Origin: Candidatus Omnitrophota bacterium
Lineage (GTDB): Bacteria; Omnitrophota; Gorgyraeia; Zapsychrales; Fredricksoniimonadaceae
NCBI GenBank assembly: GCA_015233335.1
Contig: JADFXX010000013.1
Span: forward strand, 1 to 60,662
Length of the DNA: 60,662 nucleotides
Reading direction: 5' to 3'
Position 1 is the stretch's first letter; each line of letters starts with the position of its first letter. The notes beneath the pieces were generated by a model. It saw only the letters and a list, made by a program, of their open reading frames with translations. It made no database searches and was not told the DNA's origin. The position numbers and the translations under genes are program-made. Shown here piece after piece: positions 7,284 to 46,957 of this stretch.

Positions 7284-8330
7284 GTGAGCACCAATCCATT
7301 CTCTCTATCTGGAGTCAAACACACGATCGCGATCTCTTCCTGTAAAGGGGGAGTTGGAAAATCCACGATTGCCGCCGCCTTAGCATGGGAGTTGGCCCGA
7401 AGGGGATTTAAGACGGGCCTTTTGGACACGGATATTTACGGGCCTTCCCTGCCTTCTCTTTTTCAATTAAATCATATTCGGGCCGAGATCAATGAATTTA
7501 AAATGGTGGTACCTGTTGAACATAAGGGCCTTAAGCTGATGTCTTTCGGCTTTTTATTAGGAGATGCCCCCGCTGTGATGCGCGGACCTATGGTGGCGAA
7601 TTATATTAAGCAATTATTGTTTCAAACCGATTGGGGAGAGTTGGATTATTTACTGCTCGATATGCCGCCGGGAACTGGGGATGTGCAGTTAACGATCACT
7701 CAATTGATCAAACTAACAGGGGCTGTGATCGTCACCACCCATCATACACTGTCTTTAGTGGATGCGGCTCGAGGGATATTGATGTTTGAAAAAGTCAAAG
7801 TCCCGATCCTCGGGGTGATTGAGAATATGGCCTATTTTACAGCACCGGACACGGGTAAAAGGTATTACATCTTTGGTGAACAAAAAGCTAAAAGCCTTTC
7901 CTCGCGATTCGGGGTTAAGACTTTAGTTGAAATCCCGATTTTAGAAGGGCTCTGCGCAGGGATGAGCGATTTTCAGAAAAATCCATATATCCAAGAGGCT
8001 GGGGATGAATTCGTAGAGGCCATCAAGCACATTGAAGCATCGCAAAGTCATCTTAAAGACGCGGTTTTTAAGGAAGGTCAGGTGGTCTTGACCTTCAGTG
8101 ACGGGCGAGTCTTGTCGGCACCGGCTTTTGATCTGAGAGCACATTGTCCCTGCGCCGGATGTGTCAGTGAAATGACCGGCCAGCGACTGGTAGACGTAAA
8201 AAAGATCCCTTCAGATATTTTTCCCAGGGAAATCCTTCCCTTAGGAAATTACGCTGTCGGCATCAGCTGGAGCGACGGACATTCTTCGGGAATTTATCCG
8301 TACACGTTATTTGAACATCTAAAGCATTGA
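7284..8330 (+). CDS. Mrp/NBP35-family P-loop ATPase fused to a C-terminal DUF971-type domain
   Basis: Deviant Walker A SCKGGVGKST, then DMPPGTGD and ENMAYF. The C-terminal ~90 aa carry HCPCAGC and ISWSDGHSSGIYPY (DUF971-like). GTG start. Confidence 0.85.
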   Translation: MSTNPFSLSGVKHTIAISSCKGGVGKSTIAAALAWELARRGFKTGLLDTDIYGPSLPSLFQLNHIRAEINEFKMVVPVEHKGLKLMSFGFLLGDAPAVMRGPMVANYIKQLLFQTDWGELDYLLLDMPPGTGDVQLTITQLIKLTGAVIVTTHHTLSLVDAARGILMFEKVKVPILGVIENMAYFTAPDTGKRYYIFGEQKAKSLSSRFGVKTLVEIPILEGLCAGMSDFQKNPYIQEAGDEFVEAIKHIEASQSHLKDAVFKEGQVVLTFSDGRVLSAPAFDLRAHCPCAGCVSEMTGQRLVDVKKIPSDIFPREILPLGNYAVGISWSDGHSSGIYPYTLFEHLKH

Positions 8331-25386: not shown

Positions 25387-26616
25387 ATGGTTGGAACAAC
25401 TAAAAATAAGAAATTAAAGATTACCGCTGCTAAAGAGCTTGAAATTCTACGCAATGTTGTGGATATCGCCTCATCCGAGCTTGACTTGAATTTGACCCTT
25501 CAATTAATCGTGAAAATAGTGACAGAAATGACAGATGCGGATTCTGTTTTTATCTACCTTTTTGATGAAAGCCATAAAAATCTCGTATTGAGGGCTTCAA
25601 AGACCGCCCACAAAAAAGAATTGGGGCAGGTGGTGCTTAAAATCGGCGAAGGCATTACCGGTTGGGTGGCTAGGGAAAATAAGCCGGTCGCTATTAAATC
25701 CCGAGCTTATCGTGACCCGCGATTTAAAAGTTTTGATGTGCTTCCTGAAGACCGTTACGAGGCTTTCCTGTCTGTGCCGATCATCTATAAAGGTCGCGCC
25801 ATCGGAGTTATTAATGTGCAGCATAAAACTCAGCAGGATTATTCCGGGGTTGCCGTTAATTTGATTGAAATGATCGCCAAGCAAGTTGGCGGTATCATTG
25901 AGCATGCTAGGCTTTTTGAAGAAATAAAGAAAAAAGCCCTGCAATTTGATTCCTTAGTTAAGGTCAGCCATTCAATTACCAGTGAGCATTATTTAGACGA
26001 TATTCTCAACCTGATCGTGGTTGTAACTGCGCAAATGCTAAACTCCAAGATTTGTTCGATTATGATTTTAGATGACAAAGGCCAGGAGCTTTCCATTAAA
26101 GCCACCCAATCTTTAAGCCAAGAGTATAAACAGAAGCCTAATATTAAGGTAGAAAACAGCTTAAGCGGCAGCGTGATCAAATCCAAAAAACCAGCTTTTG
26201 TGTATGATGTCAGTAAGGACGAAAAATATGTTTACCGGGATTTGGCAGTTAAAGAAGGATTGACGTCTATGCTGGTTGTGCCAATGGTCGTTAAAGATAA
26301 GGCTATAGGACTCGTTAATGTGTATACCAAAGAGCCTCACGACTTTACAGAAGAAGAAACCAACGTTCTGCAGATGGTGGCCAACCAGGCTGCAGTGGCG
26401 GTTGAAAATACCAAGCTAATGGAGGAATCCTTAAAAGCCAAGGAAGCTCTGGAAACCCGCAAGCTCGTTGAGAGGGCTAAAGGAATTTTAATGAAAATGA
26501 ACAATCTTTCCGAGGACGCTGCTTATCGTTTGATCCATAAAAAAAGCATGGACACCTGCCGAAGCATGAAGGATATTGCTGAGTCGATTATTTTGATGGC
26601 TGAATTACAAAAGTAG
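25387..26616 (+). CDS. GAF-GAF-ANTAR RNA-binding regulator (no receiver domain)
   Basis: Two GAF-like modules (GEGITGWVA and IGVINVQH; IGLVNVYT) and a C-terminal ANTAR segment, ETRKLVERAKGILMKMNNLSEDAAYRLIHKKSMDTCRSMKDIAESII. Confidence 0.85.
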   Translation: MVGTTKNKKLKITAAKELEILRNVVDIASSELDLNLTLQLIVKIVTEMTDADSVFIYLFDESHKNLVLRASKTAHKKELGQVVLKIGEGITGWVARENKPVAIKSRAYRDPRFKSFDVLPEDRYEAFLSVPIIYKGRAIGVINVQHKTQQDYSGVAVNLIEMIAKQVGGIIEHARLFEEIKKKALQFDSLVKVSHSITSEHYLDDILNLIVVVTAQMLNSKICSIMILDDKGQELSIKATQSLSQEYKQKPNIKVENSLSGSVIKSKKPAFVYDVSKDEKYVYRDLAVKEGLTSMLVVPMVVKDKAIGLVNVYTKEPHDFTEEETNVLQMVANQAAVAVENTKLMEESLKAKEALETRKLVERAKGILMKMNNLSEDAAYRLIHKKSMDTCRSMKDIAESIILMAELQK

Positions 26617-26643: not shown

Positions 26644-26673
26644 TTGACAAAATCAGAGAGAAAGGTGTATATT
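26644..26673 (+). promoter_or_regulatory. sigma70-type promoter upstream of the DUF2934 gene
   Basis: TTGACA (26644-49), 18 nt, TATATT (26668-73), with an A/T-rich upstream tract. Confidence 0.55.
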
Positions 26674-26819
26674 TAATTCCTTCAGGCAGTTACGTTGAAT
26701 TACTATCTTCTTTTAAAGTTTTAAGGAGAAGATTTTTAACTAATACATCACCGCGTTTGCGGTATCAATCCCACCCCGGTCCTAAGCGACCTTGCCGTGG
26801 GGCTAACCAGGAGGGTTTT

Positions 26820-27054: not shown

Positions 27055-27083
27055 TTGACAAGCGGTTTTTTATCAGGTATAGT
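27055..27083 (+). promoter_or_regulatory. near-consensus sigma70 promoter of the amtB-glnB leader
   Basis: TTGACA (27055-60), 17 nt, TATAGT (27078-83). Confidence 0.65.
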
Positions 27084-27101
27084 TACATTGTAATTTAAGA
27101 A

Positions 27102-27177
27102 GTCTGGAGCATGGATGTTCTAGACAGACATAAGGGCATTGATAAGTCCTCTTAGGGAAAGATCCCCAAGAGGACTT
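27102..27177 (+). promoter_or_regulatory. tandem hexaloop hairpins P1 and P2 in the amtB leader (ANTAR-target-like)
   Basis: P1, 27102-27125: 9-bp stem GUCUGGAGC/GUUCUAGAC with loop AUGGAU. P2, 27144-27177: 13 bp plus 1 mismatch with loop AAAGAU, followed by CUUAUUUUA. Both loops have A at position 1 and G at position 4. Confidence 0.5.
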
Positions 27178-27198
27178 CTTATTTTAGGGGCATAGAAG

Positions 27199-27241
27199 TC
27201 CGGTTTTATATGCGTTGGAGCATATGGAATCGGGTTTTTTT
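27199..27241 (+). terminator. intrinsic terminator inside the amtB leader
   Basis: 15-bp stem UCCGGUUUUAUAUGC/GCAUAUGGAAUCGGG (including G-U pairs) with loop GUUGGA, followed by 7 consecutive U. It lies about 190 nt upstream of the amtB ATG. Confidence 0.7.
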
Positions 27242-27279
27242 ATTGTCTAAAAAAAGAAGCACGAAAAGGGGGCATGCTT

Positions 27280-27402
27280 ATGAGCGTACCCGAGGGTTTA
27301 AAAGTCAGTAAAGTTTCAGAAATATCAGCTTTAATATTTGCTTTTTCCCAGTTGGCCTTGGCGATCGGGTTATTTTGGGATTGTAAAGTAAATATATTTT
27401 AA
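27280..27402 (+). CDS. possible 40-codon hydrophobic leader ORF
   Basis: AAAAGGGGG precedes ATG 27274 and ATG 27280. The product is MSVPEGLKVSKVSEISALIFAFSQLALAIGLFWDCKVNIF, with one TM-like segment. It falls below the ORF-track size cutoff. Confidence 0.2.
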   Translation: MSVPEGLKVSKVSEISALIFAFSQLALAIGLFWDCKVNIF

Positions 27403-27428
27403 CCAGTATATCAACGGAGGAACATGTA

Positions 27429-28694
27429 ATGGGAACAACACCACCAGTAAATCCTATTAATTCAGGCGATACGGCATGGGTCCTGGTATCTTCAGCTTTA
27501 GTCTTGCTGATGACGGCACCGGGACTGGCCCTATTTTATGGGGGCATGGTCAGGCGCAAAAACATTTTAAGCGTTTTAATGCAATGTTTTATGTGTCTGG
27601 CTATTGTCAGTGTTTTATGGGTAGTGTATGGATACAGTTTGGCCTTTGGTAAGGGGACAGGTTGGTCAGCTCCTTTTATCGGCGGCTTGCAATGGTTTAT
27701 GCTTAATGGGGTTGATATTAACACTCCTAATGCGGATTATGCGGCAACTATTCCACATCAAGCATACATGATCTTCCAGATGATGTTCGCGGTTATCACC
27801 CCGGCATTGGTTATTGGTTCTTTTGCTGAACGGGTCAAATTTTCCGCGTTTGTGTGGTTTACCGTTTTATGGCTGACCTTTGTTTATTGCCCCATCGCTC
27901 ACATGGTCTGGGCATCTGACGGTTTGGCCGGCCATACTTGGGGGGCATTGGATTTTGCCGGAGGGACAGTTGTGCACATGAATGCTGGACTAGCAGGGCT
28001 GGTAACCGCCTTATTCTTAGGTAAACGCCTGGGGACAGATAAACCCGGTATGCACAATGTGCCTTATGTAATGATCGGTGCCAGTCTTTTATGGTTTGGC
28101 TGGTTTGGTTTTAATGCCGGTTCTGCTGTTTCTGCAGGCGGGCTTGCGACCAGCGCTTTTGTGGTGACACACACAGCAACAGCTGCAGCGGCCATAAGCT
28201 GGGCTGTTTGTGAGTGGATTTTTACTGGAAAACCTACCATGGTAGGAGCTGCTTCCGGAGCTGTGGCGGGCTTAGTCGCCATTACCCCGGCTTCAGGCTT
28301 TGTCAATGCCGGCGGCGCATTATGGATCGGTTTCTTAGTCAGCATTTTTTGCTATTTCATGGTCTCTTACGTCAAACCGAAATTGGGCTATGATGATACG
28401 CTGGATGCTTTTGGCGTACACTTTATAGGCGGAACGTGGGGAGCCCTCGCAACCGGATTGTTTGCCGTAAAAGCGATTAATGCTGCCGGATCCGGACTTT
28501 TTGACGGAAACCCGGGACAGTTGCTTATTCAGGCCAAGGCCTGCGGGTTGACTATTCTGTACTGCGGGATCGTCACATGGATCATCTGTCTGATTATAGA
28601 CAAAACCATTGGTATGCGTACGACTTCGGAGGATGAAGTTTTAGGTCTGGATATTAGCCAGCACCATGAACGTGCGTATACTATTTTAGACTAA
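27429..28694 (+). CDS. amtB: ammonium transporter
   Basis: GGTVVHMNAGLAGL, WFGWFGFNAGS and VHFIGGTWGAL. GGAGG lies 8 nt upstream of the ATG. Confidence 0.95.
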   Translation: MGTTPPVNPINSGDTAWVLVSSALVLLMTAPGLALFYGGMVRRKNILSVLMQCFMCLAIVSVLWVVYGYSLAFGKGTGWSAPFIGGLQWFMLNGVDINTPNADYAATIPHQAYMIFQMMFAVITPALVIGSFAERVKFSAFVWFTVLWLTFVYCPIAHMVWASDGLAGHTWGALDFAGGTVVHMNAGLAGLVTALFLGKRLGTDKPGMHNVPYVMIGASLLWFGWFGFNAGSAVSAGGLATSAFVVTHTATAAAAISWAVCEWIFTGKPTMVGAASGAVAGLVAITPASGFVNAGGALWIGFLVSIFCYFMVSYVKPKLGYDDTLDAFGVHFIGGTWGALATGLFAVKAINAAGSGLFDGNPGQLLIQAKACGLTILYCGIVTWIICLIIDKTIGMRTTSEDEVLGLDISQHHERAYTILD

Positions 28695-28727: not shown

Positions 28728-29069
28728 ATGAAATTAGTGATTGCAATTATTCAGCCCTATAGGCTCGATGATGTCAAAAAAGAGCTTTATGCGGCGGAAG
28801 TAAACCTGATTACCGTGTCTGAAGTTTTAGGCCACGGCCGGCAGATCGGCGTCGATGAGTTTTATCGCGGGGTCAAGGAAACCGGGAATTTACTGCGAAA
28901 AATTCGTTTAGAGATCGCGGTCAATGAGGACTTTGTCGAGCCGACTATCAAGGCCATCATCAAAGGTGCGCGTGTCGGTAAGATCGGAGACGGTAAAATT
29001 TTCGTCTTGGATCTGCCAAGATGTATACGCATCCGTACCGGAGAAGAAGGATCAAAGGCCATTGGGTAG
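28728..29069 (+). CDS. glnB: PII nitrogen regulatory protein (GlnB/GlnK family)
   Basis: Aligns over its full length with E. coli GlnB as I recall it (IIQPYRLDDV, GKIGDGKIFV, IRIRTGEE). T-loop position 51 is Glu rather than Tyr. Confidence 0.93.
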   Translation: MKLVIAIIQPYRLDDVKKELYAAEVNLITVSEVLGHGRQIGVDEFYRGVKETGNLLRKIRLEIAVNEDFVEPTIKAIIKGARVGKIGDGKIFVLDLPRCIRIRTGEEGSKAIG

Positions 29070-29080
29070 TTCTAAAAAAC

Positions 29081-29109
29081 TTGACAGTTTTGGGTGGATA
29101 TATTATTAT
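29081..29109 (+). promoter_or_regulatory. near-consensus sigma70 promoter of the type III GS gene
   Basis: TTGACA (29081-86), 17 nt, TATTAT (29104-09). Confidence 0.6.
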
Positions 29110-29132
29110 GCCCCATTACTGTGAGGGCAATG

Positions 29133-29180
29133 AAGTCCTCCTTCAGGAAGCAATTTGCTTGGAGGAGGACTTTTGTCTTT
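29133..29180 (+). terminator. terminator-like hairpin in the glutamine synthetase leader
   Basis: 12-bp basal helix AAGUCCUCCUUC/GGAGGAGGACUU, an AGG bulge, and the apical helix AAGC/GCUU, followed by UUGUCUUU. The basal 8 bp are identical to P2 of the amtB leader. Confidence 0.55.
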
Positions 29181-29215: not shown

Positions 29216-31360
29216 ATGAGTCAAGCTCGCGAAGAGTTCCTTCAGGCAGCTTGTTCCGAAGAGAGCTGCTGTAATGGTTCTTTCAGTGAACATTTGCCTG
29301 AACATTTCGGCGAAAACGTGTTTAGTCTCAAGGTGATGAAAGAAATGCTTTCTCCCAAGGCCTATGTTTCTATCGAGAAAACTATTAAAGAAGGCGGTAA
29401 GTTGGACGTTTCTATTGCTGATGAAGTCGCTGAGGCTATGAAAAAATGGGCCATTGCCAAGGGGGCCACACATTTTACGCACTGGTTTCAGCCTATGACC
29501 GGCGTGACCGCTGAAAAGCATGATTCATTTATCGATTGGGATGGCAATGGAGGGGTCGTTTTAAATTTCTCCGGTAAAAATCTTATTCAAGGTGAGCCGG
29601 ATGCCTCTTCTTTTCCTTCCGGCGGTTTGCGAGCTACTTTTGAAGCCCGCGGGTACACTGGTTGGGATCCCACATCTCCGGCTTTTATCAAAGAAGGACC
29701 GGAAGCGACCACCTTGTGCATACCGACATTCTATGTCGGGTACCATGGGGAGGCTTTGGATAAAAAGACGCCTTTGTTGCGTTCCATGGTTGCATTAAGC
29801 AAGCAGGTTTGCCGTCTTGCTAGTCTTTTCGGAATTGATACCAAGGGCAAGCGCGCGTATTGCACATTAGGCCCTGAGCAGGAATATTTCTTGATTGATA
29901 AGGCTCATTATGAGGCTCGCATGGATTTGGTGCAATCAGGCCGTACGCTCTTCGGCAGAAAGCCGGCCAAGCATCAGCAACAGGAAGATCATTATTTTGG
30001 AGCCATCAAACCCCGTATTATGGGTTTCATGGAAGATTTGGACCGTACATTGTGGGGTTTAGGGATGCCGTCAAAGACTCGTCACAATGAAGTGGCCCCG
30101 GCCCAGTATGAAATGGCGCCGATCTATGAAGAATTGAATATCGCGGTTGATCATAATATGATGGCTATGGAAGTTATGCGGCAGGTCGCTGATAAGCATG
30201 GTCTGGTCTGTTTATTGCATGAGAAACCATTTGCCGGCATCAACGGTTCCGGGAAGCATAACAACTGGTCTGTGGTTGGTCCCGACGGGAAAAACTGGCT
30301 TTATCCTGGAAAGACACCGCATGATAATGCCAAGTTTTTGGCTTTGCTTTGTGCGGTCATCAAAGGTGTGGACACTTATGCTGATCTTTTGCGCGTCACT
30401 GTGGCCACAGCCGGAAATGATCATCGTCTGGGGGCCAATGAGGCTCCTCCTGCGATCGTGTCCATCTTTTTAGGGGAGCAACTGACCGATATTATCGAGC
30501 AAATTGAAAAGGGTGGGGCAAAGACCTCCAAAGAGGGAGGGGTCTTGCAGGTTGGCGTTGATTCCCTGCCGCAATTAGCTAAGGATACGACTGACCGTAA
30601 CCGGTCTTCGACCTTTGCTTTCACCGGGGCCAAGTTTGAGTTCCGTGCGGTTGGCTCTAATATGAATCCGTCGGCGTCCAATATGGTGCTCAACACCATC
30701 GTAGCAGAGGCGATTTCCGATATTTGTGATAAGCTGGAAGAGGACAAAAGTGCGGGTAAGGATTTTAATACCAGCCTGCAAAAAGTCCTTCAGGAGGTTA
30801 TTAGGAAACACAAGAGAGTGGTTTATAATGGGGACAATTATGTTCCCCAATGGCAAACCGAGGCCAAGAAGCGTGGCTTACCCAATTTAAGGAATACGCC
30901 TGAAGCGTTAGAAGCCATTAAGGCAAAGAAAAATGTACAAGTCTTAGTTAAACATGGTGTTTTGACCGAGGTCGAAATTGCTTCTCGATATGAGATCAAC
31001 AAACACGCCTATCACACAGTTTTGGTTTTGGAAGGCGATTGTGCGGTCACGATAGCCAGAACACAGTTGATCCCGGCTGCTATTGAGTATCAAAATCAAC
31101 TGGCACAGACGATTAAGTCTGTCGGTGGTGCCGGAAAAACAACAGGTCAAAAGAAACTGCTCAAGCAGGTTTCCGGCTTAATCGATCAGGCATTGAGCGA
31201 CTCCGATGCGCTGGATGCGGCTTTAGCTAAACATGACGCGGCCAAAATTTTTGCAGGTATGGCCCGTTTGCGTGAGACCATTGATGAGTTGGAAGGTTTG
31301 GTCCCGGCTAATCTATGGCCTTTGCCCAGTTACGCGGAAATGCTGTTGATGAATGCGTAA
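29216..31360 (+). CDS. glnN: glutamine synthetase type III
   Basis: 714 aa, which is the type III length class. Contains [13 protein letters not shown] and [20 protein letters not shown]. Confidence 0.9.
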
Positions 31361-31396: not shown

Positions 31397-31455
31397 AAAG
31401 TAGGGACAGACACTACTTTCGTAAAGAAAGTAGTGTCTGTCCCTACTTTTTTTGT
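31397..31455 (+). terminator. strong intrinsic terminator after the glutamine synthetase gene
   Basis: Perfect 23-bp stem (31397-31419 pairs with 31427-31449), 7-nt loop, then a T-run. The A-run on the 5' side would allow termination in both directions. Confidence 0.85.
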
Positions 31456-40919: not shown

Positions 40920-43900
40920 ATGAGTCTTCCAGAAAAACAAGGTTTATACGACCCGTATTTTGAGCACGATTCCTGCGGGGTGGGATTTATCGCGCATATC
41001 AAGGGGCACAAATCCCATGAGATCATCCGTCAGGGAGTTGAGATTTTAGAAAATTTGAGTCATCGCGGCGCTTGCGGTTGTGATCCTGAAACCGGAGATG
41101 GGGCAGGGATACTCATTCAGATGCCGGATGCTTTTTTTCGTAAAGAATTAGCCCGACGAGACATTGCGCTACCATCTGCAGGTGATTACGGCGTTGGCTT
41201 GGTTTTTCTGCCCACCTCCCTGGAAGACCGTAATATTGTCGAAGAATGGACCGAGCACATTATTCATGAAGAAGGACAAAAATTGATCGGCTGGAGAGAG
41301 GTCCCTCATGAGCCTTCGCAAGTGGGGAAGGTCGCCCGCTCGGTCATGCCTGCATTTAAACAGCTTTTCATTGCACGCGGCAAAAATACCCCGAAGGAAG
41401 ATTTTGATCGAAAACTTTATGTGATTAGAAAACGCCTTTGGAACAAAGTCTATAACTCCACGTTAGCACAGAGAAATTTTTATTATTTTTGTTCGCTTGC
41501 CAGCAACACCTTAGTTTACAAAGGACAGCTGATGAGCGCGCAGTTGAATCGTTTTTTTCCTGATCTCAGTGATTCTTCAATGGTTTCAGCGGTTGCCTTG
41601 GTGCACTCGCGGTATTCTACGAATACTTTCCCAAGCTGGGCTTTAGCGCATCCGTACCGCTATATCGCTCACAACGGGGAGATTAATACTTTGCGGGGCA
41701 ATATTAACTGGATACAAACACGGGAGAAACAGTTTGTTTCCAAAGCATTTGGTGCGGATTTAAAGAAAGTCTTGCCTATTGTCGTCCCTCATGGTTCGGA
41801 CACGGCAACGTTTGACAATGTTTTGGAAATGCTGCTTCTTTGCGGCCGTTCCTTGCCCCATGCGATGATGATGATGATTCCAGAGGCTTGGAGTAATCAT
41901 CAGGAAATGGAGCCTAAAAAGCGTGCCTTCTATGAATATCATTCCTGTTTAATGGAACCTTGGGATGGACCTGCCGCTATTGCTTTTTCTGATGGAAGAT
42001 ATGTCGGAGCTCTGCTTGACCGCAATGGATTGAGGCCTTCGCGCTATGCATTGACACATGATGATATGGTGATCATGGCTTCAGAGGCGGGGGTGTTGCC
42101 CTTGATTGAAAAAAAGATCATTGCTAAAGGCCGTCTGCAGCCGGGAAAAATGTTTTTGGTGGACACTCAGGAGGGGCGCATCATTGATGACGAAGAAGTC
42201 AAAAAGTCTTATGCCCTGCGGCAGCCTTACGACAAATGGCTTCGGGAGAATATTGTGGATTTGCGTAAACTGCCTGAGCCTGCCCAAGTTCATGGGCTCG
42301 ATGTAAAAACGTTGATCGCCCGCCAGCGTGCTTTTGGCTATACCCTTGAAGACCTCAAAATTATATTGCAGCCGATGGCGCAAGGTGAGGAGGCCACCGG
42401 GTCTATGGGGACAGATACGCCCCTGGCAGTGCTCTCTGAAAGGCCAAAACTTCTTTTTGAGTATTTTAAGCAATTATTCGCTCAGGTGACCAATCCTCCC
42501 ATTGATGCTATCCGCGAAGAGATTATCATGGCCGAAGATATGATGCTGGGACCTGAAGGGAATTTGATTGAGGAAGGCCCGGACCATTGCCATCGTTTAT
42601 GGATCCAGCGTCCGATCCTGACGAATGAAGAGTTAGAAAAAGTGGCGCACCTGCATCAAGGGAAATTAAAAGCTTTGAGGTTGCCCTGCGTGTTTGAAAA
42701 AGCTAAGGGAGCCCAAGGTTTGACACAGGCCTTCGAGCGTCTGTGTGCCAAAGCTGATGACGCCATTGACCGGGGATATAGTATTTTGATTCTCTCGGAT
42801 CGAGATATTTCTGCAAAGAATGTTCCAATTCCATCGCTCTTGGCCTGTGCGGGATTGCATCACTACCTGATCCGGCAGGGTAAACGCACTCAAGTCAGCA
42901 TCGTGGTTGAATCAGGCGAGGCGCGTGAACTGCATCATTTCGCGGTCTTGATAGGCTATGGAGCTCAAGCGATCAATCCGTATCTGGCCTTTGAGACCAT
43001 TGAGGCTATGATCGAGGAAAAGCGACTGGAACCGGCGATTCTCTTTAAAGATGCCCAGAAGAACTTTCTTAAAGCCTGTCATAAAGGGTTGTATAAAATT
43101 ATTTCTAAAATGGGTATTTCTACCATTCAATCGTATTGCGGAGCGCAAATTTTTGAGGCCGTGGGCTTGGGCCAGGAGCTGATCGATCAATATTTTACAG
43201 CCACCCCCTCGCGCATCGGGGGCATTAATATTGATGTCGTAGCCCAGGAAGCGCTTAAGCGTCATGAGATAGGGTATCCCTCATTTGATGTTGAGTATGC
43301 TATGCTGGAGGAGGGCGGAGAATACGCTTGGCGCGCACGATCAGAATTTCATCAATTAAACCCAACCACCATAGCTCTCCTGCAGCATGCGACACGCTCA
43401 GGTAATTTTCAAATTTTTCAACAATACTCCAAAGCCGTCAATGAGCATAGTCGGCAGATACCCAATATCCGCGGGCTTTTAAAATTTAAAACCGGGCATC
43501 CTATCCCCATTGATCAGGTGGAGCCGGCCTCATCAATTGTTAAGCGGTTTGCAACAGGTGCTATGAGCTATGGGTCTATTTCTAAGGAAGCTCATGAAAC
43601 TTTAGCCATTGCCATGAACCGTTTGGGAGGTTTTTCAAATACCGGTGAGGGCGGCGAGGATGCCGAACGGTTTAAAAAAGACCCGAATGGCGACTGGAGG
43701 AGAAGCCGCATCAAACAGGTTGCTCAAGGTCGGTTTGGGGTGACCATCGAATATTTGGTCAATGCAGACCAGCTTCAGATTAAAATGGCCCAAGGGGCTA
43801 AGCCCGGCGAGGGCGGTCAGCTTCCCGGACATAAAGTGTCCAAGGAAATAGCCTACACCCGTCATACGACCCCAGGGGTTATTTTGATCTCCCCTCCGCC

Positions 43901-45449
43901 GCATCATGATATTTATTCTATCGAGGATCTGGCACAGTTGATCCATGACCTAAAGAATGCTAACCCGCAAGCCGCCATTTCGGTCAAGTTAGTTTCCGAA
44001 ATCGGGGTGGGAACGGTCGCGGCCGGTGTTTCCAAGGGGAAGGCAGACCATGTTTTGATTTCCGGATTTGAAGGCGGGACTGGCGCTTCACCGCAGACGT
44101 CGATTAAACACGCAGGGTTACCGATGGAATTAGGCCTTGCCGAAACCCAGCAGGTTCTGGTCATGAATGATTTGCGTGGGCGCATTAGGGTCCAGACCGA
44201 CGGCCAATTAAAGACAGGTCGTGATGTGGCGATTGCTGCGATGTTAGGTGCGGATGAATTCGGGTTTTCGACGACCGCCCTGATCACCTTAGGCTGTATT
44301 TTGCTGCGCAAATGTCATTTGAATACCTGTTCTGTCGGGGTTGCGACCCAAGATAAGGAGTTACGTAAAAAGTTTGAAGGCAAGCCGGAATATGTGGTTA
44401 ACTTCTTTACATTTATTGCCGAAGAAGTTCGTCAGATCATGGCCCAGATGGGGTTTTCCAAATTTGAAGACATGGTAGGCCGCGTGGATATGCTTGAAAC
44501 CAAGGAAACAATTGACCATTGGAAGGCTAAGGGCATTGATCTTACCAATATTCTTCACCGGCCAGACGTGCCGGAAGGAGTGGCCATAAGGCATTCGGCA
44601 ACCCAAGATCATGCTCTAGAAAACGCGTTGGATAATTCACTGATTGCCTTGAGTCAACAGGCGATCGAACACAAGACACCGGTGCAATTTGAGGCGGATA
44701 TTCGCAACATCAATCGTACTGTGGGCACCATGCTTTCGTCAAGAGTGGCACTCAAGTATGGGTTATCGGGCTTGCCAGAGGATACCATTCAAATTAAATT
44801 TAAAGGTTCTGCGGGACAAAGTTTTGGGGCATTCTTAGCTAACGGGATAAGCTTAACACTTGAAGGGGAGGCCAATGATTATGTCGGTAAGGGGCTTTCC
44901 GGAGGTCGCATTGTTGTTTTTCCTCCGAAGGGGGCGCAATATCGACCTGAGGAAAACATCATTGTGGGGAATGTCGTTTTGTATGGGTCTATTCGCGGGG
45001 AAGCATTTTTTAGAGGACTTGCCGGAGAACGTTTTGCCGTGCGGAATTCCGGAGCATATGCGGTGGTTGAGGGAGTGGGGGATCACGGTTGTGAGTATAT
45101 GACCGGTGGGCGTGTGGTGGTGATAGGCCCCACGGGGCGAAATTTTGCGGCGGGTATGTCCGGAGGTATTGCCTATGTGATGGACAATGAAGGGGCTTTC
45201 AAGAGAAATTGTAATATGGGCATGGTGGATTTATTTCCGGTGGAAGAACAAACAGATATTCTGGAATTAAAAACTTTGATTGAAAAGCACTTAAAATATA
45301 CGCAATCTACTCTGGCCGATGCCATATTGAAGGATTGGGATCGCGTTGTGGGGCGATTTGTCAAAGTTTACCCGCGTGATTATCGAAAGGTCTTAGAAGA
45401 GGCACAAGCGGTTAAAAATACTGAAGACGTCTCATTACGCAGAACGTAG
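40920..45449 (+). CDS. gltB: glutamate synthase large subunit
   Basis: 1509 aa. EHDSCGVGF Ntn-amidotransferase start, a central FMN domain, and a C-terminal GXGXG beta-helix domain (GNVVLYGSIRGEAFFRGLAGERFAVRNSG). Confidence 0.97.
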   Translation: MSLPEKQGLYDPYFEHDSCGVGFIAHIKGHKSHEIIRQGVEILENLSHRGACGCDPETGDGAGILIQMPDAFFRKELARRDIALPSAGDYGVGLVFLPTSLEDRNIVEEWTEHIIHEEGQKLIGWREVPHEPSQVGKVARSVMPAFKQLFIARGKNTPKEDFDRKLYVIRKRLWNKVYNSTLAQRNFYYFCSLASNTLVYKGQLMSAQLNRFFPDLSDSSMVSAVALVHSRYSTNTFPSWALAHPYRYIAHNGEINTLRGNINWIQTREKQFVSKAFGADLKKVLPIVVPHGSDTATFDNVLEMLLLCGRSLPHAMMMMIPEAWSNHQEMEPKKRAFYEYHSCLMEPWDGPAAIAFSDGRYVGALLDRNGLRPSRYALTHDDMVIMASEAGVLPLIEKKIIAKGRLQPGKMFLVDTQEGRIIDDEEVKKSYALRQPYDKWLRENIVDLRKLPEPAQVHGLDVKTLIARQRAFGYTLEDLKIILQPMAQGEEATGSMGTDTPLAVLSERPKLLFEYFKQLFAQVTNPPIDAIREEIIMAEDMMLGPEGNLIEEGPDHCHRLWIQRPILTNEELEKVAHLHQGKLKALRLPCVFEKAKGAQGLTQAFERLCAKADDAIDRGYSILILSDRDISAKNVPIPSLLACAGLHHYLIRQGKRTQVSIVVESGEARELHHFAVLIGYGAQAINPYLAFETIEAMIEEKRLEPAILFKDAQKNFLKACHKGLYKIISKMGISTIQSYCGAQIFEAVGLGQELIDQYFTATPSRIGGINIDVVAQEALKRHEIGYPSFDVEYAMLEEGGEYAWRARSEFHQLNPTTIALLQHATRSGNFQIFQQYSKAVNEHSRQIPNIRGLLKFKTGHPIPIDQVEPASSIVKRFATGAMSYGSISKEAHETLAIAMNRLGGFSNTGEGGEDAERFKKDPNGDWRRSRIKQVAQGRFGVTIEYLVNADQLQIKMAQGAKPGEGGQLPGHKVSKEIAYTRHTTPGVILISPPPHHDIYSIEDLAQLIHDLKNANPQAAISVKLVSEIGVGTVAAGVSKGKADHVLISGFEGGTGASPQTSIKHAGLPMELGLAETQQVLVMNDLRGRIRVQTDGQLKTGRDVAIAAMLGADEFGFSTTALITLGCILLRKCHLNTCSVGVATQDKELRKKFEGKPEYVVNFFTFIAEEVRQIMAQMGFSKFEDMVGRVDMLETKETIDHWKAKGIDLTNILHRPDVPEGVAIRHSATQDHALENALDNSLIALSQQAIEHKTPVQFEADIRNINRTVGTMLSSRVALKYGLSGLPEDTIQIKFKGSAGQSFGAFLANGISLTLEGEANDYVGKGLSGGRIVVFPPKGAQYRPEENIIVGNVVLYGSIRGEAFFRGLAGERFAVRNSGAYAVVEGVGDHGCEYMTGGRVVVIGPTGRNFAAGMSGGIAYVMDNEGAFKRNCNMGMVDLFPVEEQTDILELKTLIEKHLKYTQSTLADAILKDWDRVVGRFVKVYPRDYRKVLEEAQAVKNTEDVSLRRT

Positions 45450-45466
45450 CGATAGGGAATACTCAT

Positions 45467-46957
45467 ATGGGCGACGTTAAAGGCTTCATGAAGCATGACC
45501 GGCAGGATTATAAAAGAGATCCGGTTTCCCGGCGTGTTACTAATTTTAAAGAATTTGTGCATCTTCCCGCAGAAAAAGATTTAATGGCCCAGGCTTCGCG
45601 TTGCATGGATTGCGGGGTGCCGTTTTGCCAATCAGGTTGTCCTATCGGCAACATTATCCCGGACTGGAATGATCTGGTTTATCGCAATCGCTGGCAGGAA
45701 GCCCTTGAGCGTCTGCATAAGACCAACAATTTTCCGGAATTCACGGGACGTGTTTGCCCGGCCCCTTGCGAAAATTCCTGCGTTTTGGGAATTAACGCCC
45801 CTGCGGTGACTATCAAGAATATTGAACTTTCCATCATTGAACATTCCTATGATAAAGGGTGGGTTGTCGCTCGTCCGCCCAAACACCGCTCAGGGATGAA
45901 GGTTGCGGTTATTGGGTCTGGACCCGCAGGGCTATCTTGTGCAGATCAACTGAATCATAAGGGTCATAAAGTGACTGTTTATGAAAAGAATGAATTGATC
46001 GGGGGGCTTTTAAGCCTTGGGATACCTGATTTTAAACTGGAAAAACAGGTCGTTTTCCGCAGGGTCGACCGCATGCGTGCAGAGGGCATTACATTTGAGT
46101 GCGGTGTGCACGTAGGGGTCGATATATCCGCTCAAAAATTACGTGAGAAATTTGATGCCATTGTTTTATGCGGGGGAGCAGAGGCGGCCCGCGAGCTTGC
46201 AGTGCCGGGGAGGGAATTAGAGGGGGTTTATCAGGCCATGTATTATTTGCCCCAGCAGAATTTGCGTAATAATAATTATCGCACAGATCAGTTTATGGCA
46301 AAATATGTCGAACATGTTTCTCAGTTTAGACCTGTCCCTTTGAAAGAAGTGTCAGCCAAGGCCAAGCGTGTTGTGGTTTTAGGGGGCGGAGACACCGGTT
46401 CGGATTGTGTCGGGACCGCCATTCGCCAAAAAGCACTTAGCGTGCATCAATTTGAATTAATGCCGCAGCCCCCCCAAAAACGTTCTCAGGATAATCCCTG
46501 GCCTAACTGGGCGTTTATTTTACGCACCTCCAGCTCCCATGAGGAAGGCTGTGTTCGTGATTATAGTATTTTGACGAAACGTTTAAGCGGTGAAAACGGA
46601 AAATTAAAGAAATTGCACGCGGTACGTTTGCAATGGGGTAAAGACCCGCAGAGCGGGCAAATGAAGATGAGTGAGGTCCTGGGTTCAGAATTTGAAATGG
46701 AGTGTGATCTATTGCTTTTGGCCATGGGATTTTTGGGTCCGGTCAAAAAGGGCATGCTGGAAGAACTGGGAGTTGGCTTGGATGCTCGAGGGAATGTAGC
46801 GGCCGACAGTCAAAAAATGACCAACGTGCCAGGGGTGTTCACAGCGGGAGATATGACCCGAGGCCAGTCTTTGGTGGTATGGGCGATTTATGAAGGACGG
46901 GCTGCGGCAGAAGGCGTCCATAATTATTTAACGAAAAAAGTTTTGAAAAAAAACTAA
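45467..46957 (+). CDS. gltD: glutamate synthase small subunit
   Basis: CMDCGVPFCQSGCP Fe-S region and the VAVIGSGPAGLSCA dinucleotide fold. Confidence 0.95.
   Translation: MGDVKGFMKHDRQDYKRDPVSRRVTNFKEFVHLPAEKDLMAQASRCMDCGVPFCQSGCPIGNIIPDWNDLVYRNRWQEALERLHKTNNFPEFTGRVCPAPCENSCVLGINAPAVTIKNIELSIIEHSYDKGWVVARPPKHRSGMKVAVIGSGPAGLSCADQLNHKGHKVTVYEKNELIGGLLSLGIPDFKLEKQVVFRRVDRMRAEGITFECGVHVGVDISAQKLREKFDAIVLCGGAEAARELAVPGRELEGVYQAMYYLPQQNLRNNNYRTDQFMAKYVEHVSQFRPVPLKEVSAKAKRVVVLGGGDTGSDCVGTAIRQKALSVHQFELMPQPPQKRSQDNPWPNWAFILRTSSSHEEGCVRDYSILTKRLSGENGKLKKLHAVRLQWGKDPQSGQMKMSEVLGSEFEMECDLLLLAMGFLGPVKKGMLEELGVGLDARGNVAADSQKMTNVPGVFTAGDMTRGQSLVVWAIYEGRAAAEGVHNYLTKKVLKKN

Follow-up and report, generated by a model that had tools for sequence, protein, structure and literature searches.

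Tandem mini-hairpin/terminator units in the amtB-PII leader of a Candidatus Omnitrophota bacterium as a probable target of the adjacent GAF-GAF-ANTAR protein

RESULTS

A nitrogen assimilation locus headed by a GAF-GAF-ANTAR regulator

We analyzed a 60,662-nucleotide stretch of DNA (hereafter the window; ~60 kb of contig JADFXX010000013.1) from a metagenome-assembled genome (MAG) lineage of Candidatus Omnitrophota, and we describe here the leader of its amtB-PII operon, which is likely controlled by two ANTAR-gated terminators arranged in series. The gene for a GAF-GAF-ANTAR regulator precedes this leader, and genes for an ammonium transporter, a PII protein, and a type III glutamine synthetase (GS; GSIII family) follow it on the same strand:

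25387-26616 (+): regulator gene, GAF-GAF-ANTAR protein of 409 aa (Pfam)
27055-27083 (+): promoter TTGACA-17-TATAGT, sigma-70 type, 11/12 consensus positions
27429-28694 (+): amtB (Pfam Ammonium_transp, E 1e-119)
28728-29069 (+): PII gene (Pfam P-II, E 2e-23)
29216-31360 (+): type III GS gene (Pfam GSIII_N, E 3e-76, with Gln-synt_C and Gln-synt_C-ter)

Scanning the regulator protein against species-representative genomes yielded 36 loci from Candidatus Omnitrophota MAGs at 63 to 91% identity, and our comparative statements come from these loci of a single phylum. The order regulator-leader-amtB-PII-GS is kept in about 20 of the 36, while GS comes directly after the regulator gene in others; the regulator gene stands immediately 5' of regulated leaders in more than 20. 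The promoter is present exactly where a preliminary description of this DNA had placed it (TTGACA at 27055-27060, TATAGT at 27078-27083, 17-nt spacer), and TTGACA and TATAnT are kept at the same place in the relatives. Transcription should start near 27090. The leader itself, described at first as some 340 nt long, is in fact an attenuator of ~150 nt (~27090-27241), after which comes a conserved gene of 40 to 42 codons (27274-27402).

Two mini-hairpins, each fused to the base of a terminator

The attenuator consists of five elements, two of which share bases with the element that follows them:

27102-27125 (+): P1, 9-bp hairpin with hexaloop AUGGAU (A at loop position 1, G at position 4); -11.9 to -13.4 kcal/mol
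27134-27149 (+): P2a, mini-hairpin GGGC-AUUGAUAA-GUCC, putative antiterminator 1, 8 nt 3' of P1; -3.3 kcal/mol alone
27146-27185 (+): T1, first intrinsic terminator, stem 27146-27175, tail UUCUUAUUUU; -17.9 to -20.9 kcal/mol
27188-27201 (+): P2b, mini-hairpin GGGC-AUAGAA-GUCC, putative antiterminator 2, an exact GGGCANNGNNGTCC match; -3.4 kcal/mol
27198-27241 (+): T2, second intrinsic terminator, stem 27198-27235, U7 at 27235-27241, 15 to 16 bp; -19.8 to -21.4 kcal/mol; in the terminator scan

The leader (27085-27260) folds at -67 kcal/mol, against an average of -37.5 kcal/mol for shuffled sequences (z = -8.1; 0 of 200 shuffles as stable). Its minimum-free-energy (MFE) fold holds all three of the long hairpins named in the preliminary description, and each of the three also folds in isolation. 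Direct reading and folding agree on P1 (9 bp, loop AUGGAU), an A1/G4 hexaloop hairpin that is kept and covaries in relatives, and T2 was likewise recorded correctly, with 15 bp at 27199-27234, the loop GUUGGA, and U7 at 27235-27241.

The middle hairpin (27144-27177) is where the two accounts part. Its 13 bp (with one A/C mismatch), its loop AAAGAU, and its tail CUUAUUUUA are all present as described, but it is a terminator and not an ANTAR hairpin. All 19 relatives with this leader type have a T1 hairpin of the form GUCCUCUU...AAGRGGAU, and UUUUUAUUUU follows it immediately; the loop region, by contrast with the A1/G4 loop claimed for it, varies in both length and sequence in 19 of 19. Because that U-rich tract directly follows the stem in relatives and because the loop varies freely, we assign this hairpin as T1 and reject it as an ANTAR site, and the A1/G4 loop that it displays in the window reads as coincidence. 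What had been missed are the two mini-hairpins of the type GGGC-A..G..-GUCC at 27134-27149 and 27188-27201. The 3' arm of P2a (GUCC, 27146-27149) is the base, that is, the first four pairs, of T1, and the 3' arm of P2b (GUCC, 27198-27201) is the base of T2. The earlier caveat that hairpin and terminator overlap only indirectly is thereby gone, for after this reassignment each terminator directly overlaps a hexaloop-type hairpin.

Promoter, P1, linker, P2a overlapping T1, and P2b overlapping T2 are kept in this order in 20 Omnitrophota loci, with a P1-P2a linker of 8 nt in the window and 7 to 9 nt in the relatives. GUCCGG, which opens the 5' arm of T2 (GUCCGGUUUU), is in most relatives also the start of the 5' arm of P1 (corresponding to 27102-27107 of the window). 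Two further repeats had been put forward as signals, and we rejected both. RAAGUC does underlie the 5' arms at 27099 and 27195, but the site at 27143 reads UAAGUC, and RAAGTC is found in the window at chance frequency (55 copies against 49 expected). The TGGAGCAT repeat is present at 27105 and 27216 as described, but it too occurs at chance frequency (3 found, 2.6 expected in the window), and it is not kept in relatives (alignments A1 and A2, below).

The energies of the competing structures are very unequal. The mini-hairpins, including a third one ahead of GS, amount to -3.3 to -3.4 kcal/mol, against -17.9 for T1, -19.8 for T2, and -20.2 for the GS terminator, and forcing P1, P2a, and P2b to form together costs ~8.5 kcal/mol relative to the MFE. 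The stem of an intrinsic terminator must abut its U-tract to work. With GUCC removed, the residual terminator stems stop 4 nt short of the U-tracts. This calculated profile is what would be expected of antiterminators that depend on a protein.

Conservation and covariation in related leaders

We tested these structures on two alignments, one of 20 loci covering P1, P2a, and T1 (alignment A1) and one of 14 loci covering P2b and T2 (alignment A2). P1 is 98.9% paired across alignment A1, and 6 of its 9 pairs carry changes on both sides; the corresponding values for T1 are 89.5% and 5 of 12 pairs. A slid control, in which partners were shifted by 1 to 3 columns, lowers pairing to 34 to 57% in this alignment. 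The basal helix of T2 is 97.8% paired across alignment A2, with compensatory changes in 4 of 16 pairs, and the compensatory pairs of P1, T1, and T2 all lie far above the slid controls. The stems of P1 and T2 thus covary, as does that of the hairpin now named T1, whose loop, unlike its stem, is not conserved.

The loops of P1 and P2a carry the nucleotides at positions 1 and 4 that mark ANTAR hexaloops. When P1 is located by pairing alone, G4 is found in 21 of 21 loops, A1 in 18, and A5 in 19; for P2a, G4 occurs in 20 of 20 and A1 in 19 of 20 (columns 42 and 45 of alignment A1). The P2a stem is 100% paired and nearly invariant, with one G.U-to-A-U change, and the P2b stem is 100% paired and almost invariant across its 14 loci. 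Because its stem is nearly invariant, covariation cannot prove P2a. Whereas the linkers on either side vary, these motifs keep GGGC, the loop nucleotides A1 and G4, and the closing C-G pair unchanged or almost unchanged. A linked substitution occurs in L013, L016, and L017, in which the shared arm reads GCUC instead of GUCC and the 3' end of the terminator then reads GGGC or GAGC; because the terminator end changes along with the shared arm, neither of the two competing helices is lost.

A covariance model built from 19 relatives, with the window left out, recovers the window leader at 27098-27184 with 73.1 bits (E 3e-19). Its second-best match is the GS leader (29098-29179; 19.4 bits, E 0.003), and nothing else in the 60-kb window is significant. 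A MAFFT alignment of P1-P2a alone (A3) misaligned 7-nt and 8-nt loops and was not used.

The mini-hairpin/terminator unit as a recurring module

A hairpin survey of the leaders, together with a pattern search, exposed GGGC-A..G..-GUCC as a motif in its own right. Of the exact form GGGCANNGNNGTCC (GGGC-ANNGNN-GUCC) the 60-kb window has just two copies, one in the amtB leader (27188-27201) and one in the GS leader (29125-29138); motif matches at 41878 and 48555 lie inside open reading frames (ORFs) and were dismissed as chance. In related loci the motif is confined to the strand of the regulator, and nearly all copies stand in amtB, GS, or DUF2934 leaders. When the 75 nt from the GUCC of each motif are folded, nearly all of them give a terminator stem whose first bases are that very GUCC, and the stem sequences differ between loci. 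Copies within ORFs (L002 at 1467, L010 at 4024) have no terminator. Over the window and 37 loci, mini-hairpins fused to a terminator number 72 on the strand of the regulator and 5 on the other.

The copy ahead of GS belongs to a third attenuator, and the DUF2934 gene that precedes the amtB leader has a leader of its own:

29081-29180 (+): third attenuator, ahead of the type III GS gene; terminator -20.2 kcal/mol; no P1
26820-27038 (+): DUF2934 small protein gene

The GS attenuator comprises a promoter (29081-29109), the mini-hairpin GGGC-AAUGAA-GUCC (29125-29138), and a terminator (29135-29170, followed by UUUUGUCUUU), and the GUCC at 29135-29138 is common to mini-hairpin and terminator. P1, P2b, and this unit all have loops of 6 nt. 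Seven lineages have the GS unit, and from five it is cleanly missing; the relatives that have it are L007, L009, L012, L013, L017, and L021. The DUF2934 leader varies as well. A canonical GGGC-ANNGNN-GUCC/terminator unit stands there in L002, L004, L005, L006, and L008, while the DUF2934 leaders of the window, L036, and L009 have a terminator-like hairpin and no recognizable mini-hairpin, which these three appear to have lost. The window gene has its own consensus promoter (26644-26673, +), and the hairpin in its leader (26705-26733) is followed by UUUUUAA (~26705-26738 in all). Because their presence varies among GS and DUF2934 leaders, the mini-hairpin/terminator units appear to behave as modules that are gained and lost.

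Several related leaders depart from the common plan. L012 (~7350-7435), L017 (~7385-7470), and L021 (~7735-7810) carry ~75 nt of additional structured RNA between T1 and P2b, in which the hairpin GUUCGCUCACCAUCCUGAGCGAG sits inside a long-range helix, GGUUCGACUC...GAGUCGAAGG; the insert has no Rfam match and is not recognizably a glutamine riboswitch. In L014 (7410-7470) the second mini-hairpin, GGGGC-AUUGAG-GCCUU, is followed by no terminator and instead by a hairpin whose 3' arm holds the Shine-Dalgarno sequence of the small ORF (CAAGGAG), such that the ANTAR hairpin may gate translation rather than termination there. L034 (1212-1300) is missing T1, and the GGGC-AAAGAAUUGAA-GUCC that comes after P1 is fused straight onto T2; it looks as though recombination between the GGGC...GUCC repeats had removed the first attenuator. 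The GS leaders of two more distant relatives, L030 (7397-7460) and L031 (9746-9815), have two GGGC-A..G..-GUCC mini-hairpins ~36 to 42 nt apart with a terminator fused to the second only; the first may be a recruitment hairpin that replaces the long P1.

The GAF-GAF-ANTAR regulator

Residues 351-402 of the regulator form an ANTAR domain (Pfam PF03861, E 2.4e-21, profile positions 3-54 of 54), and residues 340-405 match the ANTAR regions of the structures 6wsh, 1s8n, and 4akk. Pfam finds GAF_2/GAF twice in the protein. The first GAF domain (residues 16-176) has its best Protein Data Bank match in the GAF domain of PtsP/EI-Ntr (3ci6, E 2e-22; 3trc, E 9e-17). Its score against the NCBIfam PtsP model PRK11061 is 140 bits, far under the full-length cutoff of 583, as expected for a one-domain match; relatives bear the JGI name "signal transduction protein with GAF and PtsI domain." For the second GAF domain (residues 186-370), the match is to the NifA GAF region (TIGR01817, E 2e-28). 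The output here is the RNA-binding ANTAR domain, whereas that of PtsP is a phosphotransferase and that of NifA an AAA+ activator.

The GAF domain of NifA binds 2-oxoglutarate. That of PtsP binds glutamine in E. coli, S. meliloti, and C. crescentus (PMC4848567). Similarity from GAF to GAF does not establish a ligand, and it is at best a tentative suggestion that the GAF domains of the regulator read glutamine or 2-oxoglutarate directly. From its domain matches we infer, more broadly, that the regulator may sense glutamine and/or 2-oxoglutarate, or else PII, and that it would be active under nitrogen limitation. The ANTAR literature that we searched lists the GAF-ANTAR architecture and describes no characterized example.

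Full-length homologues at 42 to 52% identity make up only a handful of 50%-identity clusters. One of them, L041 (42% identity), has as neighbors GSIII, a MerR-family gene, and a gene in which amt and PII are fused. The amt-PII leader of L041 (4700-4810, minus strand) contains a textbook dual hexaloop, GGAAUAC-AAAGGC-GUAUUCC and then GCAGGC-AAAGGC-GUCUGC, with an overlapping terminator, and carries CAGGCAAAGGCG, a match to the published site of Geobacter GnfR. Because this homologue adjoins an amt-PII gene with a dual-hexaloop leader, the association of regulator and target reaches beyond the close family. The distant homologues of L038, L040, and L042 have no adjacent nitrogen genes and so are uninformative on targets. 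A search of a representative library was dominated by giant multi-GAF proteins and returned no taxonomy.

Other elements of the locus

Between T2 and amtB lies the small gene mentioned above:

27274-27402 (+): conserved small ORF of 40 to 42 codons, encoding one hydrophobic helix

Equivalents with AAGGAGG ribosome-binding sites are found in 14 related loci, and the ORF is absent from L001, L009, L034, and L036. The relatives have in common the motif Q-[IV]-A-L-A-x-G-L-F-[WY]-A-x-K-x-H-L-V. The product matches no Pfam or NCBIfam family, and it may be a membrane partner of AmtB. Just 3' of the GSIII gene, a perfect 20-bp palindromic hairpin with T-runs on both strands (31400-31446 of the window) looks like a bidirectional terminator between GSIII and the downstream GATase and NAD synthase genes. 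The genes for the large and small subunits of glutamate synthase (GOGAT), gltB and gltD, lie 10 kb downstream (40920-46957, +). Because the 98-nt region upstream of gltBD has no mini-hairpin/terminator unit, GOGAT appears to stand outside this attenuation regulon.

DISCUSSION

Relation to known ANTAR systems

ANTAR targets have been defined as two hairpins of at least 3 bp with A1/G4 hexaloops, separated by a linker of 5 to 12 nt, with the 5' base of a terminator making up the second hairpin (Ramesh et al. 2012, PMC3369931). P1 and P2a/T1 conform to this definition in their stems (9 bp and 4 bp), their A1/G4 loops, their linker, and their terminator overlap, and depart from it in the size of the P2a loop. 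P1 paired with the hairpin at 27144-27177 departs from it in its spacing of 18 nt, in having no terminator overlap, and in its unconserved loop. A gene for an ANTAR protein stands directly upstream (25387-26616). As for the intrinsic terminators, T2 ends in U7 and the GS terminator in UUUUGUCUUU; T1 has a strong stem but a tail of UUCUUAUUUU in the window, against UUUUUAUUUU in the relatives.

The ANTAR dimer contacts one hexaloop at a time, a single hexaloop is the minimal site, and P1 is bound first as a recruitment hairpin (Walshe et al. 2022, PMC8934654). Because a single hexaloop is a minimal site, the P2b and GS units, which have no partner hairpin, become plausible as ANTAR targets. By analogy, P1 would probably be the recruitment hairpin for an ANTAR dimer in our leader, and the arrangement suggests a hand-over from P1 to P2a and then to P2b.

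The eut leaders of Enterococcus faecalis, controlled by EutV, are a close parallel. They share with our leader the pair of A1/G4 hairpins, the 5- to 12-nt linker, the second hairpin at the 5' base of the terminator, a plausible recruitment role for P1, and the presence of several attenuators per locus. They differ in their sensor, a phosphorylated receiver domain where we find tandem GAF domains, and in serving ethanolamine use rather than nitrogen assimilation; the 7- to 8-nt P2a loop, the single P1 for two serial mini-hairpin/terminator units, and the GS unit without a P1 also set our locus apart.

Another close parallel is found in Geobacter sulfurreducens, where the site bound by GnfR, CAGGCAANGGCGCC, lies upstream of the terminators in the leaders of nifH, glnK, and amtB and overlaps them (Ueki and Lovley 2010, PMC2995071). 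In GnfK/GnfR (nifH, nifEN, glnK, and amtB leaders), as is proposed here, an ANTAR protein controls nitrogen genes that include amtB and PII through leader terminators, and the CAGGCAANGGCGCC site, a GGC/GCC stem with an A1/G4 hexaloop that overlaps a terminator, has the same design as GGGC-ANNGNN-GUCC. GnfR, however, is a response regulator that is phosphorylated by GnfK and expressed from a sigma-54 cascade, whereas the putative system described here, from another phylum, couples a one-component GAF-GAF protein to sigma-70-like promoters. In Desulfotomaculum acetoxidans, Clostridium thermocellum, Alkaliphilus, and Caldicellulosiruptor, too, ANTAR sites have been predicted in front of genes for ammonium transporter/PII and for glutamine synthetase (Ramesh et al. 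2012, Table S2, PMC3369931). These resemble ours in the classes of downstream gene, in the overlap with terminators, and in forming multi-operon nitrogen regulons, but they are Firmicutes predictions from a dual-hairpin model, whereas the Omnitrophota loci have tandem terminators and single-hexaloop units. NasR/nasF and AmiR/amiE, finally, share ANTAR antitermination at a leader terminator and the A1/G4 hexaloop determinants; their sensors are, respectively, a NIT domain for nitrate and the partner protein AmiC, and each comprises one attenuator at one locus.

ANTAR control of amt, PII, and GS leaders is therefore already known, from GnfR and from the predictions of Ramesh et al. (2012), and our locus is a further case in a new phylum. 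What varies here are the two attenuators in series, the single-hexaloop units, and an uncharacterized sensor module.

A model for the amtB-PII leader

Structures, conservation and covariation, terminator overlaps, and linkage to the regulator gene are features of the DNA itself; that this protein binds these loops, and that it is activated under nitrogen limitation, we infer. The adjacent GAF-GAF-ANTAR protein very probably has this leader as its RNA target and would work by antitermination. The amtB-PII operon would be transcribed from a constitutive-looking sigma-70 promoter, with T1 and T2 in series as the gate. By default the nascent RNA would first form P1; P2a is worth only about -3 kcal/mol, so that T1 (about -18 to -21) would capture the GUCC arm and transcription would stop in the U-rich tail. 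Under inducing conditions the active regulator would bind the loops of P1 and P2a and keep GUCC within P2a, whereupon T1 would lose the four pairs next to its U-tract and polymerase would read through. The same event would recur at P2b and T2, ~50 nt further on, and read-through would lead to expression of the small membrane protein, AmtB, and PII. GS would be subject to the same mode of control from its separate promoter and single mini-hairpin/terminator unit.

A more ambitious version of this model is possible, and we hold it to be rather unlikely as a whole. In it, a one-component sensor composed of a PtsP-like GAF, a NifA-like GAF, and ANTAR would read glutamine and/or 2-oxoglutarate directly, with neither a kinase nor a partner; it would be recruited once at P1 and handed to P2a and then to P2b; and modular GGGC-ANNGNN-GUCC/terminator cassettes, acquired and lost before amtB, GS, and DUF2934, would constitute the main nitrogen control of the lineage.

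Several observations weigh against control by ANTAR-gated terminators. The 4-bp stems of P2a and P2b have no double-sided covariation among close relatives. Stem variants do occur in more distant loci (GGAC/GUCC, AGAC/GUCU, GAGC/GCUC, and GGGC/GCCU), but these came from a scan that required pairing and are partly circular as evidence. All of the relatives belong to one phylum, so that their conservation reflects, in part, shared descent. The P2a loop has 8 nt in the window and 7 to 8 nt in all relatives, against the canonical 6. Neither P2b nor the GS unit has a partner hairpin nearby, whereas EutV antitermination needed dual hairpins both in vivo and in vitro. Because the U-tract of T1 is interrupted in the window (UUCUUAUUUU), T1 may be a weak terminator there. 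The source is an uncultured MAG lineage, and only 60 kb of its genome can be seen, which leaves room for a different ANTAR protein as the true binder.

Alternative explanations

The preliminary description had proposed that P1 and the hairpin at 27144-27177 are the two ANTAR hexaloop hairpins and that they compete indirectly, through an alternative helix, with T2 as the sole terminator. Both loops do carry A1 and G4 in the window, and the alternative helix exists: GGACUUCU (27172-27179) is complementary to AGAAGUCC (27194-27201) over 8 bp, worth -9.4 kcal/mol. The loop of the second hairpin, however, is kept in 0 of 19 relatives, in which the GUCCUCUU...AAGGGGAU hairpin has UUUUUAUUUU right after it, as a terminator would; its distance of 18 nt from P1 falls outside the functional range of 5 to 12 nt (PMC3369931); and the proposal leaves out the invariant GGGC-A..G motifs. 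Nor does the helix seem to serve as a relay from T1 to T2, for it is strong in the window only, falling to about -3.7 kcal/mol in relatives, and we rejected it in that role. It is probably a by-product: the ...GAA-GUCC motif is repeated and the 3' arms of the terminators end in GGAY, which accounts for both the common AAGUC and the GGACUUCU/AGAAGUCC complementarity. We give this arrangement of the hairpins a very small chance of being correct, even though the central idea of the preliminary description, that the leader is the RNA target of the adjacent protein, is supported; its structural assignment went wrong precisely where the mechanism lies.

It is very improbable, if slightly less so, that T1 and T2, as an ordinary tandem pair, merely end transcription of the regulator and DUF2934 genes upstream and that the GGGC/A..G motif has nothing to do with ANTAR, serving instead, for example, as a site for some other RNA-binding factor or an RNase. 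The hairpins do sit 3' of the DUF2934 stop codon (27038), and the link to ANTAR is drawn from sequence comparison. A conserved consensus promoter nevertheless separates that stop codon from P1, and GS, like DUF2934 in relatives, has the mini-hairpin/terminator unit behind a promoter of its own; the motif, moreover, fits the published rules of ANTAR recognition position by position and co-occurs with the ANTAR gene. We regard it as improbable, too, that the attenuators answer to something else, be it a small-molecule riboswitch, ribosome-mediated attenuation through a leader peptide, or an ANTAR protein encoded elsewhere, of which the 60 kb of visible genome, an ORF that overlaps T2 (27210-27311), and the extra structured insert of ~75 nt between T1 and P2b in three relatives might be taken as signs. 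A mini-hairpin of 14 nt is too small for an aptamer, and a search of the whole window and of 11 related loci against Rfam gives nothing at the gathering threshold; under relaxed settings the window leader and the L012 leader give chance-level matches only. The ORF at 27210-27311 has no ribosome-binding site and is not conserved, so we rejected it as a leader peptide, and the tight synteny of regulator and leader favors the adjacent protein. Two ANTAR-gated terminators in series thus remain, in our judgment, the likely mode of control of the amtB-PII leader.

Significance

The mini-hairpin fused to a terminator has a practical bearing on annotation: dual-hairpin covariance models will miss many such sites, and searching for the fusion itself recovers them. 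The single-hexaloop ANTAR units proposed here would be natural ones, with one recruitment hairpin serving two terminators, and they bear on the revised "successive binding" model (PMC8934654). Our data give the GAF-ANTAR architecture a set of probable RNA targets and, with them, a physiological role. For the Omnitrophota, a phylum without cultured representatives, they would provide a testable nitrogen assimilation circuit in which sensor, RNA sites, terminators, and targets all lie within 6 kb.

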